Source of the DNA: Candidatus Dormiibacterota bacterium
Lineage (GTDB): Bacteria; Chloroflexota; Dormibacteria; Aeolococcales; Aeolococcaceae
Direction of reading: 5' to 3'
DNA length: 64,000 nucleotides
NCBI GenBank assembly: GCA_963768105.1
Contig: CAVYGR010000003.1
Span: forward strand, 331,848-395,847
In this document: positions 3,399 to 63,050 of the stretch, piece by piece
Numbering within the stretch: position 1 is the first letter of the stretch
Layout of the letters: every line of letters starts with the position of its first letter
Program-made: the position numbers and the translations under genes
The notes under the pieces: generated by a model
The model's database searches: none
Told to the model about the DNA's origin: nothing
What the model saw: the letters and a program-made list of their open reading frames with translations, nothing else

Positions 3399-4850
3399 TC
3401 AGCTCGCGGCGCGTGCGGACCGCCGTTGGTGCCGCCGAGTGTTCGACCACGCCGCGTCGATGGCCTTGATCTCGCCGCTGAGCGACGCTGCCGTAGCCAC
3501 ATAACTGGAGCGCACGTAGCGCTCATGATTGACCTCCAACCGCTGCGGCTCGTACACGTAGTTGACCATCACCCCATAGGACTGCCCGCCCCTCGGTGAG
3601 AGATCCGCGTCGGGGTTGACGCGCTCGAGCCGCGCGCCATTGGAGAGATGGAAGTGGCCAACGCTGTCGGCGATGTGGCCACGGACCTTGACATGCAACA
3701 GGTCGGCGAGTGCCAAGCGCCCCGCCAGCCGAGCAACCGCTGGATCGTGTGGTCCGGGCGCTGTCAGCAGCCGAGACAGCGACTCCAGCTCGTCGCCTGA
3801 CTTCGCGAGGCGACGCAGCTCGTCATGATGGCCCGCGGTGAGCGCGCGCAGGCGCTCGTCGGTGAAGGCGTCATCGTCGGCATGATTCGCGACGGCCTTG
3901 GCCAGGCTGGGGACGGGCGACAGGGTCGCAAACGTGCGCAGCGCCGGCAGCTCCGCGGAGAGTTCGCGAACCACCTGTTTGATCAGGAAGTTCCCAAACG
4001 AGATGCCGCGCAGGCCGGGTTGGCAGTCGCTGATCGAATAGAAGACGGCGGTGTGAGCGTCCCGGGCTTCGGCAATGGGTCGCTGCACGCCGATCAGCGG
4101 AGCGATCGCGGTTGGCAGCTCGCGGGTGAGGGCGATCTCCACGAAGATCAGCGGTTCCCCGGGCAGCAACGGGTGAAAGAACGCGAAGCACCGCCGGTCG
4201 GCGGCGAGCCGCAGACGCAGGTCGTCCCATCCGTGGATCTCGTGCACCGCCTCGTACGCGATCAGCCGTTCCAGCGTCGCGGCAGGCGTGCTCCAGCTGA
4301 TCTGCTCGAGACGCAGGAAGCCACCGTTGAACCAGGACGACAGCAGGTGGCGCAGGTCGGCATCTACGCCGCGGAGGTGCGGACGTGCTGGGAGCAGCTC
4401 GAGCAGCCGGGCGCGCAACTTGACCAGCGCCGCCGCACCGCCGGCGACCATGTTGAGTCGTCGGAACAGCTCTTGGCGCGGCGCCTCCGTAGCCTCGGCA
4501 AGTGAGATGACGGCGTCATCGCTGGGATCCGCCTGCCACCGTGCCACTGCCGCCGCGACCGCTTCGGACGGCGGTGAGAACGAGGCGGCGAGTACCTCCA
4601 GGAATGCGGCGTCGTCGGCGCCGCTCATGCGCTCGAGGGCACGAACCACCTCGGTCGCCAATGCCAGTCCGGACGCCTCACCGCGCCGAGCGATCAGGCG
4701 CTGGCATGTTGCAGCGAGGTTCGCCGTGCTGTTGGTGCGCCCGTTGCCATGTCCGAGCATGGCCCTGCCCCGCTCCGCAACCAGGGTGACATGCTCGAGC
4801 CACGACCGTGGTGTCATCGCGAGCAAGTATCGGTCACTTTGGGGGCTCAT
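3399..4850 (-). CDS. malonyl-CoA decarboxylase
   Basis: 483-aa ORF with MCD-family blocks FFHPLLPGEPLIFVEIALT, YSISDCQPGLRGISFGNFLIKQVV and TLSPVP. Confidence 0.85.
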   Translation of the reverse strand: MSPQSDRYLLAMTPRSWLEHVTLVAERGRAMLGHGNGRTNSTANLAATCQRLIARRGEASGLALATEVVRALERMSGADDAAFLEVLAASFSPPSEAVAAAVARWQADPSDDAVISLAEATEAPRQELFRRLNMVAGGAAALVKLRARLLELLPARPHLRGVDADLRHLLSSWFNGGFLRLEQISWSTPAATLERLIAYEAVHEIHGWDDLRLRLAADRRCFAFFHPLLPGEPLIFVEIALTRELPTAIAPLIGVQRPIAEARDAHTAVFYSISDCQPGLRGISFGNFLIKQVVRELSAELPALRTFATLSPVPSLAKAVANHADDDAFTDERLRALTAGHHDELRRLAKSGDELESLSRLLTAPGPHDPAVARLAGRLALADLLHVKVRGHIADSVGHFHLSNGARLERVNPDADLSPRGGQSYGVMVNYVYEPQRLEVNHERYVRSSYVATAASLSGEIKAIDAAWSNTRRHQRRSARAAS

Positions 4851-54626: not shown

Positions 54627-54700
54627 CGGGGAGTAGCTCAGATGGTTAGAGTACTGGTCTGGGGGACCAGGGGTCGCAGGTTCGAGTCCTGTCTCCCCGA
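54627..54700 (+). tRNA. tRNA-Pro (anticodon GGG)
   Basis: Hand-folded cloverleaf. Acceptor CGGGGAG/CTCCCCG, D arm GCTC..GAGT, anticodon stem CTGGT/ACCAG with loop CTGGGGG, T arm GCAGG-TTCGAGT-CCTGT, discriminator A. No encoded CCA. Confidence 0.9.
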
Positions 54701-54824
54701 CGGACGCGCAAGTTGATCTCAGTGCAGGGATTTCCAGTGCCATCCATTTGGCTCAATCCTGCGGGGACTAGCCCTCATCTTCGGATTGATGACTTTGCCA
54801 GCAAAACGTATCATACTTTCCAGT

Positions 54825-56165: not shown

Positions 56166-56189
56166 GTGCTTACGCAGCGCTTACACTTC
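56166..56189. promoter_or_regulatory. copy 1 of a conserved 24-nt element motif (GTGCTTACGCAGCGCTTACACTTC)
   Basis: 18/24 identical to copy 2. Contains GCTTAC twice, 11 nt apart. Upstream of the XRE gene. Confidence 0.45.
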
Positions 56190-59766: not shown

Positions 59767-59899
59767 GGGTCGAAAACGGGGTCAAAACCGCAGGTGAAAG
59801 TGTGTGTGAGATATAGGCGTGGGGCGGTGCTGCAGGGATGCGGAGGGCGGAGCTGATGGGAGTGTCGGGTGACGGTGAAGCTGAGGAGTTGAGGTGGTG

Positions 59900-60691
59900 A
59901 TGGCGGTGGAGATGGTGATGCCGGCGACGCTGCAGGGAGTGGCGGGGCTGGAGCGGGACTGGGAGGGCCCGGGTCCCCGCTTCGTCCAGATCACCGCGCG
60001 CTTCCACAACCGCTGTGGCGGCTGCGGCGGTGACGCGCCGGTCGGCACCCGCATCACCTACGACCGGCTCGAGCGCCATCCGTACCACCCGGGATGCGCG
60101 TGGGTTGCGATCGAGCAGCCGCCCTGGCTGATCCCCGTCCTCGCCGGCGATGCGCCGGCCCCCGGGCAGGTGATCGCGCATCCCAGCTACGGCTGGCTCG
60201 TGTGCGTGCGTGTGGCGGGGCGGACGTGGGCGGACAACGGCGTGAGCGCTGGGAGTGTCGTCGGCGTGGCCGCTCGGCGTGCGCTCCCCGAGGAGATCGA
60301 GCTGGCGCAATGGCGCGCGTACGCTGGCATGGGCGATGAGGCCGAGTGGTCCTGGCTGCAGCCCGAGCACGTGGGCGACATCGCGGAGTCCGTCGCCGAG
60401 TTCACCGGCTGGCCGATCACGCGCATCGCGCGCGAGCCCGCACAGTTCGTCGCGCCTCACCCCGGCGGGCTGTTGGTATTCGGCGAGGTCACCCCGCTCG
60501 ATGAGACCGAGCGCTGGATCGCCGCGGATCCCGAGGAGCGCTCGCTGTATCAGCGCGGCTATCGCTGGTGCCGCTGCTACTCGGTGCAGTGCCTTGCCGG
60601 CGAGGAGGGCCACGTCCACCTCGGCTCGGTCATTCCCGTGACACGCACCCAGTTCGACGCGGCCAACCAGCGGGGCTGGTCGCTGCACTAA
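59900..60691 (+). CDS. hypothetical Cys-rich protein, divergent from the relaxase
   Basis: ORF 59894-60691. An ATG at 59900 follows GAGGAG/GAGGTGG. RFHNRCGGCGG...HPYHPGCAW suggests a zinc site. No family recognised. Confidence 0.55.
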   Translation: MAVEMVMPATLQGVAGLERDWEGPGPRFVQITARFHNRCGGCGGDAPVGTRITYDRLERHPYHPGCAWVAIEQPPWLIPVLAGDAPAPGQVIAHPSYGWLVCVRVAGRTWADNGVSAGSVVGVAARRALPEEIELAQWRAYAGMGDEAEWSWLQPEHVGDIAESVAEFTGWPITRIAREPAQFVAPHPGGLLVFGEVTPLDETERWIAADPEERSLYQRGYRWCRCYSVQCLAGEEGHVHLGSVIPVTRTQFDAANQRGWSLH

Positions 60692-60746
60692 CCGCCCGTG
60701 TGTCCCGGGTGGGATGCGTCGTCAGGGGCGCGGCGTGTGCTGACGT

Positions 60747-61066
60747 CGCGGAGTCCGCGACGCTCGCGGGAAGCGCGAGCTCCGCGACAGTGCATCAATG
60801 CGCGGATCTCGCGAGGTACGCAAGATGCGCGATGTAGGCGATGGCAGCGGCACGCGCGAGACACGCGAGATGCGCGAGACGCGCGAGACATGCGTGATTG
60901 GCGGTGTCCGCAAGATCTGCTGAACGCGCGCGGTCCGCGAACCACGCGACACTCGCGAACGATGCGACATTCGCGAACGACGCGAGATGCGCGGAGTTCG
61001 CACCGTTGAGTCGATGCGCGCGACGAGCACCCGGCGCGGAACACGCGGGACGGGCTGCAGGCGCGA
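60747..61066. repeat. about 36 phase-locked tandem 9-bp repeats (nnCGCGAnn); candidate centromere/iterons
   Basis: Hand count: 21 of 36 consecutive 9-nt registers carry exact CGCG[A/G], and 9 more are within one mismatch. Example: cgcgcgaga cacgcgaga tgcgcgaga cgcgcgaga catgcgtga (60853-60897). Confidence 0.85.
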
Positions 61067-61157
61067 CATCAGCAGTGTGCGAACGATGCCCTCGACGCGC
61101 ACTTCGGCGATCCGGCGACCCATGTCCGGCCAGCGCGCAGCCGCGCGGCAGCGCGGG

Positions 61158-61505
61158 TCAGATCGTGTGGTCTGTGGGGTCCTGGGGCTTGGTGCCCAGC
61201 GCCCCGACGGGACGTCGGAGGCTCGCCTTGCCGGCGCGTGCCGGGAATGGCTGCCCGCGCTCGTGCTCCAGGTCATCGACCGCCGCAGCCAGCGCCTTGG
61301 TCGCGAGAGCGGTCAACGTCAGCCCCGGAGTCCAGTACACGGCGTTGCGGGCGCGTTCGAGTACCTCGGGGTCGAGCGACACGCCGACCGTGATCGCCCG
61401 CGCGGAACGCGGCACTTCCTGGTGCGCCGCCGGCCCTGTGGAGGAAGGTGGGAACACCGCAGCGAGGGGGTCGTCCCCCAGCGTGCTGCTACGCCGCGGG
61501 CGCAT
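61158..61505 (-). CDS. small partition-associated DNA-binding protein (RHH/ParG-like by resemblance)
   Basis: 115 aa, immediately downstream of and overlapping parA. ITVGVSLDPEVLERARNAVYWTPGLTLTALATKALAAAVDDLEHERGQPFP resembles recalled actinobacterial ParA-partner proteins. Confidence 0.55.
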   Translation of the reverse strand: MRPRRSSTLGDDPLAAVFPPSSTGPAAHQEVPRSARAITVGVSLDPEVLERARNAVYWTPGLTLTALATKALAAAVDDLEHERGQPFPARAGKASLRRPVGALGTKPQDPTDHTI

Positions 61506-62262
61506 GGCGCACCTCCTGCGCGATCACCTCGCAGGCTAGGCTGCGATAGTCGGCGGCGCCGCTGCAGCGCGGGTCGTACTGGGTGATGGGCTGCCCGAAC
61601 GACGGACACTCTGCGAGGCGCACGTTCTCGCGGATGACCGTGCTGCAGACCAGGTCGCCGAAGCGTCCGCGCAGGCGCTCCACCACCTCGGGACCATGCC
61701 GGGTGCGGGCGTCGACCCGGCACGCCACGATGCCGCTGACGCGCAGCCGCGGGTTGACGCGCTCACGGGCGGCCTCGACGCCGCGCAGCAGCTGCACCAG
61801 GCCGGCCATCGCCATGACGTGTGCCTCAACCGGGATGAACAGCTCCTCGACGCTGGCGAGGGCGTTGGCGGTGAGCGCGCCGAGCGCCGGCGGACAGTCG
61901 ACCACCAGGTAGTCCCAGCGGTCGGGGAGGTCGCCGATGAGCTGGGCGAGCCGCCCCTCCCCGGCGCGTATCTCGGCCAGCCTGCGCTCGGCGCCCAGGA
62001 GCCACATCGACGACGGCACGATGTCGAGCCCGAGGGTGCCGGTGTGGTGGACGGCATCGGACAGCCGCGCTCCACCGAGGAGGGCGTCGAGCAGCGTGCG
62101 CGATTCCGTGGGGGCGGCCACCCACGCCGAGGCGGACGCCTGAGGATCGAGGTCGATCAGGAGGACGCGCCGTCCGGTCTCGGCCAGCGCGGCGCTGAGG
62201 CTGACGGCGGTGGTGGTCTTGCCGGAGCCGCCCTTGTGATTGACGGTGGCGATGGTGCGCAT
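61489..62262 (-). CDS. parA: ParA/Soj-type partition ATPase
   Basis: Deviant Walker A NHKGGSGKTT, LLIDLDPQ, VVDCPP. Confidence 0.92.
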   Translation of the reverse strand: MRTIATVNHKGGSGKTTTAVSLSAALAETGRRVLLIDLDPQASASAWVAAPTESRTLLDALLGGARLSDAVHHTGTLGLDIVPSSMWLLGAERRLAEIRAGEGRLAQLIGDLPDRWDYLVVDCPPALGALTANALASVEELFIPVEAHVMAMAGLVQLLRGVEAARERVNPRLRVSGIVACRVDARTRHGPEVVERLRGRFGDLVCSTVIRENVRLAECPSFGQPITQYDPRCSGAADYRSLACEVIAQEVRHAPAA

Positions 62263-62291
62263 GGCGGCGATGCCTCCCAGATCGTCGGCCT

Positions 62292-62350
62292 CGCGAATCC
62301 CGCGAGAGTCGCGAACATCGCGGGATCCGCGGTGTCGCGAGGTTCAGCGA
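62292..62350. repeat. 5-7 copies of the same 9-bp CGCGA repeat upstream of parA (candidate operator)
   Basis: CGCGA at 62292, 62301 and 62310; CGCGG at 62319 and 62328 (all 9-nt steps); then CGCGA at 62336 and AGCGA at 62346. Confidence 0.7.
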
Positions 62351-62366
62351 CCACGATAGCGTCCGC

Positions 62367-62390
62367 GCGCTCACAGAGCGCTTACATTTC
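62367..62390. promoter_or_regulatory. copy 3 of the conserved 24-nt element motif (GCGCTCACAGAGCGCTTACATTTC)
   Basis: Lies between parA (104 nt away) and the SSB-like gene (36 nt away). Confidence 0.5.
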
Positions 62391-62426
62391 TATCCGGCAC
62401 GCGCCGTGCTCGGCTAGGCTGAGTCG

Positions 62427-63050
62427 GTGAGTGTCAATGCCGTGTGTCTCATCGGCTTGGTGGCTGTCCGTCCGACGTGGGACCAGGAGTTGTCGTTGGC
62501 ATCAGTGCTTGTCGTCACCGCTGGAGGCGATGGAGCGTTCCGCGAGCGCCATCGTGTTGTCGTCAAGCGGTCGATCACAGAGGTGGCGCTGGCGCTCGGC
62601 GTGGGCCAGCAAATCTTCGTGACCGGCACCGTGCAACGCGACCACAGGAACCGCGTGATCGTGGTGGCACGAGAGTTGTGGCCGATCGGGGACGTGCCGG
62701 GTGGGACGGCGGTCCAGCGCCTCGGTGGGAACACATGCGTCACCTCGCGAGCACCAGCGAGCAGGGCACTGGCGTCGCGTCTCGATCGGCGGTCCTCGAG
62801 AACGCCTGGTCTGGGTGCGGACGACCACCGTCGGGCGCGATCGCTGAGGGTAGGCCCCGTTTCCGGGTGCACCGTTCGGCCGCGCCGTCAGCGAGACGAT
62901 CGATGGGATCTGCGGTCGGTGCTTGCGGCATCGACGTCGTGGCGGTGGAGGATGGGATTGTCGCGGTTCAGTTCCTCATCCAGCCCCGCGTCGAGGCATT
63001 CTCGGCAGAAGAACCGGCTGCTGCGCACCCCATGGCAGGCGATGCACTGA
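62427..63050 (+). CDS. SSB-like OB-fold protein; only the first ~95 codons look genuine, 3' end uncertain
   Basis: VNAVCLIGLVAVRPTW....ASVLVVT....HRVVVKRSITEVALALGVGQQIFVTGTVQRD fits the SSB OB-fold pattern. The remaining ORF is low complexity and overlaps the convergent zinc-ribbon gene. Confidence 0.45.
   Translation: MSVNAVCLIGLVAVRPTWDQELSLASVLVVTAGGDGAFRERHRVVVKRSITEVALALGVGQQIFVTGTVQRDHRNRVIVVARELWPIGDVPGGTAVQRLGGNTCVTSRAPASRALASRLDRRSSRTPGLGADDHRRARSLRVGPVSGCTVRPRRQRDDRWDLRSVLAASTSWRWRMGLSRFSSSSSPASRHSRQKNRLLRTPWQAMH

Follow-up and report, generated by a model that had tools for sequence, protein, structure and literature searches.

A phased 9-bp CGCG repeat upstream of parA on an integrated Dormibacterota element is a probable type Ib partition operator/centromere, with a larger array downstream

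A short repeat with a CGCG core recurs in 9-nt steps directly upstream of a parA gene of an uncultured soil bacterium of the Dormibacterota and again downstream of the same operon, which raises the question of what binds it and to what effect. The window analysed here is a stretch of 64,000 nucleotides. The operon belongs to an element integrated beside a tRNA-Pro(GGG) gene (54627-54701) which carries a tyrosine integrase, an XRE regulator, a TrwC relaxase, the parA gene with a gene for a ribbon-helix-helix (RHH) protein, an SSB-like gene and RadC. Beyond the window the contig continues for another 1.4 kb. One relative lies inside a 2.2-Mb contig, which indicates that such elements are chromosomal. 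The repeats are distributed as follows.

62283-62354, no strand assigned: whole repeat block upstream of parA, about eight slots of 9 nt in the phase 62292 + 9k
62292-62332, no strand assigned: five perfect units with a CGCG core in exact 9-nt steps, the cores being palindromic (YCGCGR)
60729-61102, plus strand: large array of about 42 slots in one 9-nt phase, with 24 perfect CGCG cores and nine that match three of the four bases

The plus strand from 62290 to 62352 reads, unit by unit, cTCGCGAat, cCCGCGAga, gTCGCGAac, aTCGCGGga, tCCGCGGtg, TCGCGAgg and tTCAGCGAcc. All the motifs which an earlier note on this DNA had listed are present: CGCGA at 62292, 62301 and 62310 and CGCGG at 62319 and 62328, which make up the five exact 9-nt steps, followed by CGCGA at 62336 and AGCGA at 62346. 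A degenerate CGTC at 62283 precedes the perfect units. The last two motifs had been described as out of phase. This is correct for 62336, which comes 1 nt early and is the sole displaced unit of the block, but not for 62346, which equals 62292 plus 6 x 9 (54 nt), so that the degenerate seventh unit AGCG is back in phase. Measured from the parA ATG (62262, minus strand), the perfect and named cores are situated 30-88 nt upstream, in agreement with the 30-90 nt given before, while the whole array of 62283-62354 lies 21-92 nt upstream.

The large array is polar, with CGCGA on the plus strand, and runs for about 370 bp without a single phase slip. Among its CGCG cores, 24 of 30 fall in one phase (Rayleigh z = 21 at period 9). 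The open reading frames overlapping it have a GC3 of 0.62-0.76 against at least 0.84 in real genes, and on this ground a coding function of the array was rejected. The orientation of the upstream block had been said to match that of the large array. This is literally true but carries no information, since YCGCGR, the core of the upstream units, reads the same on both strands: against a weight matrix derived from the large array (24 units), these units obtain nearly equal scores in the two orientations (8.5 vs 7.7 bits), while the large array itself is polar by this matrix (+2.3 vs -1.7 bits per unit). The simplest structural reading is a two-fold symmetric dimer on each palindromic core, and the downstream units would add a secondary preference for their A-rich 3' flank (CGCGAGA).

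Two other features of the downstream region were recorded. Tandem Repeats Finder scored an 18-nt super-period above the 9-nt period between 60854 and 60993 (94% vs 85% matches), which recalls the 18-bp contact of the ParB dimer of plasmid pCXC100. A Cys-rich ORF of 265 aa (59894-60691; ORF265 in the following), which matched no family, is convergent with the RHH gene, and its stop abuts the large array. The synteny of parA-RHH, the 265-aa ORF and the relaxase gene is kept in the diverged relatives L065 and L067.

CGCG is common in the window (19 per kb, in DNA of 68% GC), and a compositional origin of the repeats was therefore considered. When the window was scanned for at least four CGCG at a fixed step of 6-13 nt, only step 9 gave runs, at 60747, 60855, 60927 and 62292. 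A pattern of four such cores was matched 6 times, whereas dinucleotide-preserving shuffles predict 0.01 matches. Throughout the 2.68-Mb assembly, every period-9 run of at least four cores belongs either to the upstream block or to the large downstream array, while other fixed steps within 5-15 nt give 0-1 such runs. The phased repeats are nonrandom and chance is excluded, as the earlier note had argued from their recurrence on both sides of the operon. With the repeats also kept in relatives, a product of base composition is already refuted, and its probability is negligible.

The two genes of the operon are the following.

61489-62262, minus strand: parA, encoding a 257-aa Walker-type ATPase (AAA_31, 7.9e-45; CbiA, 1.4e-23; GC3 0.92)
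61158-61505, minus strand: gene for a predicted 115-aa RHH centromere-binding protein, parB-like, on the basis of profile homology and an AlphaFold2 (AF2) model

ParA has ParA_partition as its best NCBIfam match. It possesses no N-terminal HTH extension, as the AAA_31 match covers residues 1-174 and the KGGSGKT motif is at residues 10-16. Judged from the sequence, its size and architecture are those of type Ib and not of type Ia with an N-terminal HTH. The 115-aa ORF overlaps the parA stop by 17 nt and has a GC3 of 0.84, like a real gene. By sequence alone, its product gave no match in Pfam, NCBIfam or the PDB (phmmer). The alignment of its family, consisting of 40 mostly metagenomic proteins, revealed an invariant core R-A-R-N-A-V-Y-W-T-P-G with a short hydrophobic alternating segment before it and a long helix after it. 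The AF2 model has an extended stretch (residues 38-45) followed by two helices (46-58, 64-83), with pLDDT above 90; the modelled layout is that of a ribbon-helix-helix monomer. A Foldseek search with the monomer returned no significant match, the best RHH protein being SegB with E = 6. When the locus was compared with a plasmid collection by blastn and tblastn, no close relative was found, only generic ParA matches and one Cardinium plasmid. In the genome collection, 59 loci encode relatives of the 115-aa protein, and about 35 of them, from many phyla, have a ParA gene directly upstream.

Profile comparison connected the 115-aa family to a known partition protein. The top match of the family profile in the PDB was 3NO7, the RHH domain of pCXC100 ParB, at E 0.46. 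A bridge profile was built from the 3NO7 fragment through five homologues on actinobacterial (Actinomycetota) plasmids, and this five-homologue profile matches 3NO7 at 7e-18. In hhalign, the 115-aa family aligned to the bridge profile with 95.4% probability and E 1.7e-8, over the strand, both RHH helices and a shared C-terminal G-PF...GRP tail; aligned directly to the 3NO7 sequence it gave 69% and E 4.3e-5. About 29% of the RHH-domain residues are identical with 3NO7, a level that pairwise searches miss. By these profiles the relation of the 115-aa product to pCXC100 ParB is one of remote homology and not of close membership in its family. In footprints, pCXC100 ParB covers nine unspaced 9-bp repeats that make up about 90 bp in front of parA; the RHH dimers, each with its centre on one repeat, bind with moderate cooperativity and contact 18 bp apiece, and the footprint periodicity is 9.0-9.1 nt (PMC3074162). 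In type Ib systems including pCXC100, this single upstream site doubles as centromere and operator (PMC3074162). The five plasmids with closer homologues of pCXC100 ParB (four of Micrococcales, one of Propionibacteriales) showed no obvious 9-bp array upstream of parA, so the array is not universal in the superfamily. The Actinomycetota plasmid loci L062-L064, which encode closer homologues, carry a few copies of a AGTACTGTTA-like motif upstream of parA, partly inverted, in place of a 9-bp tandem array.

To follow the repeats among relatives, a close set of 11 loci with 80-98% identity, all from Dormibacterota MAGs, and a diverged set were compared. The diverged set, with RHH identities within 47-54%, comprises L013 (ParA 71%, RHH 47%) and L065 and L067 (RHH 51-52%). 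All 11 close loci have their period-9 CGCG runs in two places and nowhere else, one ahead of parA and the other past the RHH gene. Upstream there are always five cores (11 of 11), while the downstream array varies in length and composition and has up to nine perfect cores in a row. Among the 12 copies of the upstream block, none of 24 core columns varies against 8 of 26 non-core columns (Fisher p = 0.004), a contrast which is suggestive and not independent evidence since the copies are kin. The diverged relatives carry more weight as evidence of conservation. L013, L065 and L067 all have a 9-nt-phased CGCG-type block at the same position upstream of parA, and of the downstream arrays of L065 and L067, one has 13 of 18 cores (z = 9.0) and the other 17 of 26 (z = 13.3) in one phase by the Rayleigh test. 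L013, also of Dormibacterota, keeps the upstream block and the promoter motif described below (both within 4291-4420) and has no large downstream array. The two sites are thus not obligatorily paired, and the upstream block looks like the ancestral type Ib site to which the long array was added later. When the flanks of upstream and downstream repeats were compared in the diverged relatives for lineage-specific covariation, only the CGCG core was in common.

Several MAGs carry more than one locus of this type: L001, L004 and L011 come from one MAG, and so, pair by pair, do L008 and L010, L002 and L009, and L005 and L006, giving 2-3 parA-RHH modules per MAG with the same CGCG repeats. If these MAGs are not chimeric, co-resident elements share their repeat specificity, and cross-regulation or incompatibility would be possible. 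Among distant members of the RHH family, from Bipolaricaulota and others, ACGGGAAC is positioned 10 nt before the parA start at L016, L017, L019, L020, L022, L025, L028, L034 and L054 and is found again at +190 inside parA in most of these nine; at L024 and L030 it lies at -77 and -83. The distant loci carrying it have no 9-bp CGCG array. It may be the own binding motif of these distant members or a coding coincidence.

The position of the upstream block was next related to the signals for parA expression, which are the following.

62367-62390, minus strand: 24-nt motif AARTGTAAGCGNTNYGTRAGC, common to three intergenic regions of the element
62353-62358, minus strand: TATCGT, a -10-like TANNNT hexamer, with no other TANNNT within 100 nt ahead of parA
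62273-62278, minus strand: Shine-Dalgarno sequence GGGAGG, 10 nt before the parA ATG

On the minus strand the 24-nt motif has the form AARTGTAAGCG-N-CTGTRAGC. The corresponding pattern GCTYAC-N5-GCTYAC is found in the window only at 56168 (to 56191), 59745 (to 59768) and 62369 (to 62390), with one unrelated match in the rest of the genome. The three sites precede the XRE gene, the relaxase gene and parA, and the motif is invariant in the 12 copies of the locus. A TANNNT hexamer is situated exactly 10 nt after it at the parA, relaxase and XRE genes and also in L013, L065 and L067. The motif with its hexamer is probably the common promoter/operator of the element, as read from this recurrence. 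A terminator-like match at 62367-62381 was rejected, being part of the same motif, and a scan with a generic sigma-70 consensus found no promoter. The distance from the motif and hexamer to the start codon is about 7-20 nt at the relaxase and XRE genes versus a leader of about 84 nt at parA, which is filled by the repeat block and the strong Shine-Dalgarno sequence. The relaxase gene has a GTG start 7 nt after the hexamer, which suggests a leaderless mRNA. From TATCGT, transcription of parA is predicted to start near 62346, by which the block would fall within roughly the first 55 nt of the leader. If TATCGT is the promoter hexamer, the block would cover about +3 to +64, a placement suited to blocking open-complex formation or promoter escape.

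On the other side of this intergenic region, the divergent SSB-like ORF starts with a GTG at 62427, and a TANNNT match, TAGGCT (62415-62427), ends 6 nt ahead of it, which makes this another possible leaderless start. The SSB-like ORF has no Pfam match; only its first 95 codons or so have the look of an OB-fold, and the remainder up to 63050 is weak, with GC3 of 0.75.

With the block inside the predicted leader, it could instead act as RNA, in the form of a structured 5' leader which controls parA translation or mRNA stability. The leader does fold at -41.9 kcal/mol with z = -2.0, and that of L013 reaches z = -2.9. However, self-complementary CGCG cores pair trivially, the leaders of L065 and L067 fold no better than shuffles (z about 0), and the same repeat in the non-transcribed-looking downstream array is left unexplained. 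The structured-RNA reading was rejected as covariation is lacking (RNAalifold term only -0.08) and Rfam gave no match, and we regard it as very unlikely.

Taken as DNA, the block is probably a type Ib operator/centromere bound by the 115-aa RHH protein, for which the downstream array would be another, larger site. Binding, cooperativity, the promoter position, repression and partition are what we infer in the following picture. The stretch 62283-62354 would serve as tandem sites for dimers of the RHH protein encoded after parA, with a single dimer on every palindromic CGCG core. Through cooperative binding of neighbours at a spacing of 9 bp, the dimers would cover some 70 bp, from just past TATCGT to about 5 nt short of the Shine-Dalgarno sequence. 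At high levels of the RHH protein, the occupied block would impede RNA polymerase in initiating at the promoter or escaping from it, which would make the operon self-repressing. The array of 42 slots beyond the RHH gene would be coated by this protein too, and ParA would move the resulting nucleoprotein complexes, so that the excised, plasmid-like form of the mobilisable element is partitioned. The earlier note had proposed that the block is an operator of the parA-RHH operon and that one protein would recognise both it and the downstream array. This proposal gains support, at the level of sequence, from the homology to pCXC100 ParB, the recurrence of the two sites, the invariant cores and the position between the conserved promoter-like element and the Shine-Dalgarno sequence. 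Since the upstream site of type Ib systems is usually also the centromere, it may be too narrow to regard the block as an operator alone.

The roles of centromere and operator could be divided between the two sites in more than one way. The earlier note had assigned the operator to the upstream site and the centromere to the downstream one. The reverse assignment, with the upstream block as principal centromere in the canonical type Ib manner and the downstream array as an accessory, be it an expansion, a sink or a second centromere, is in our view less likely than not. It agrees with pCXC100 and other type Ib systems, in which one upstream site serves as centromere and operator alike (PMC3074162), with the presence of the upstream block only in L013 and with the constancy of five cores upstream while the downstream array varies in length and composition. 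Against this, the downstream array has about five times more sites, stays in phase over its roughly 370 bp and is kept in relatives of about 52% identity; the slip-free phase and this upkeep point to selection on protein coating rather than drift. An arrangement which keeps the original assignment and adds titration was also considered, in which the upstream block serves as operator alone, the polar array of 42 slots is the centromere and the two compete for one RHH pool. With about five times more sites, the array would titrate the repressor. We think this rather unlikely. If it is true, par expression would go up on excision and replication, with more arrays per cell, and down as a single integrated copy. 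The module would then be a sensor of copy number or lifestyle made from repeat arithmetic alone, and cross-talk could arise between co-resident elements, as related MAGs carry 2-3 with the same repeat.

The genomic neighbourhood allows another function for the two proteins. The locus is positioned between the TrwC relaxase gene, with a candidate oriT, and genes of leading-region type (SSB-like, RadC); VirC2 is an RHH protein too, and ParA has a marginal match to VirC1 in Pfam. ParA and the RHH protein might accordingly be conjugation accessories of the VirC1/VirC2 type, and the repeats overdrive-like enhancers which recruit the relaxosome. The VirC1 match, at 25.1 bits against a cutoff of 24, is confined to the first 50 residues, which are generic P-loop, while the best family matches of ParA are partition ATPases. 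The RHH protein has no Pfam match to VirC2 and is homologous to a proven centromere-binding protein, and the repeat block lies in the parA leader, not at oriT. On balance this function is improbable.

The repeats might also be bound by another protein of the element, the XRE regulator or the Cys-rich ORF265, in place of the RHH protein. At L065, in the stretch 3434-4260, a GNAT acetyltransferase gene parts the RHH gene from the phased array, which still adjoins the ORF265 homologue. In contrast, L013 has an ORF265 homologue and no large array, tandem sites 9 bp apart from centre to centre are the documented mode of the RHH family, and the XRE protein pairs more plausibly with the 24-nt motif at the three promoters. 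Recognition by one of these proteins is, in our judgement, quite improbable.

The reading of the block as a type Ib operator/centromere was compared with known systems. The locus shares with type Ib a small ParA, an adjacent downstream RHH gene and an array upstream of parA over the inferred promoter. Closest in layout is pCXC100 of Leifsonia xyli subsp. cynodontis (3NO7; PMC3074162), where a small Walker ParA likewise precedes a small RHH protein whose N-terminal tail is flexible, and unspaced 9-bp repeats fill about 70-90 bp directly upstream of parA. The two differ in several respects. The pCXC100 repeat is the non-palindromic direct repeat AGNTGGAAA, whereas here the CGCG core is palindromic and polarity is confined to the downstream array. 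pCXC100 has one cis site, upstream of parA, whereas the element has a second array of 42 slots downstream of the RHH gene. ParA has 317 aa in pCXC100 and 257 aa here, and pCXC100 is an actinobacterial plasmid in contrast to an integrated mobilisable element in a Dormibacterota chromosome.

The bracketing of the operon has a parallel in par2 of the enterobacterial plasmid pB171, also of type Ib, where cis repeat sites lie on both sides of parAB as they do here. In par2 one ParB binds at the two sites, the upstream one of which overlaps the promoter; the repeats are 6-bp B-boxes, compared with 9-bp units here. The best analogue for tandem palindromic YCGCGR units is found in the met-box arrays of MetJ, in which individually palindromic 8-bp boxes abut in tandem and each takes one RHH dimer with cooperative neighbours. 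MetJ differs in having co-repressor-dependent binding, a metabolic regulon and no ParA partner. The gene order of pB171 par2 is parC1-parA-parB-parC2 (PMC4270457). In the type Ib systems omega/delta of pSM19035 and ParG/ParF of TP228, RHH dimers bind 7-bp heptads and 4-bp boxes 8 bp apart, respectively (PMC3074162). The omega and ParG sites overlap the par promoters, and one protein both regulates and partitions (PMC3074162). Both systems have other unit lengths and sequences than the present repeat, and no sequence similarity to them was detected.

The locus is thus a known design in a new setting, with a palindromic core, a long second array and an integrated element of an uncultured phylum, and it leaves the understanding of partition systems unchanged. 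For the protein family, the probable role proposed here would assign a function to a ParA partner labelled as hypothetical in every database, whose hosts include Dormibacterota, Bipolaricaulota and Chlamydiota among many phyla. It would extend the rule known from pCXC100, RHH dimers on tandem sites 9 bp apart from centre to centre, to a very distant relative with a different palindromic core. For the organism, it documents a two-site module, a putative operator together with a long array, on an integrated mobilisable element of an uncultured phylum. Partition systems on SXT/R391 ICEs stabilise the excised form (PMC4489591). The possession of a two-site partition module by an integrated element suggests that it spends time as a low-copy extrachromosomal circle.
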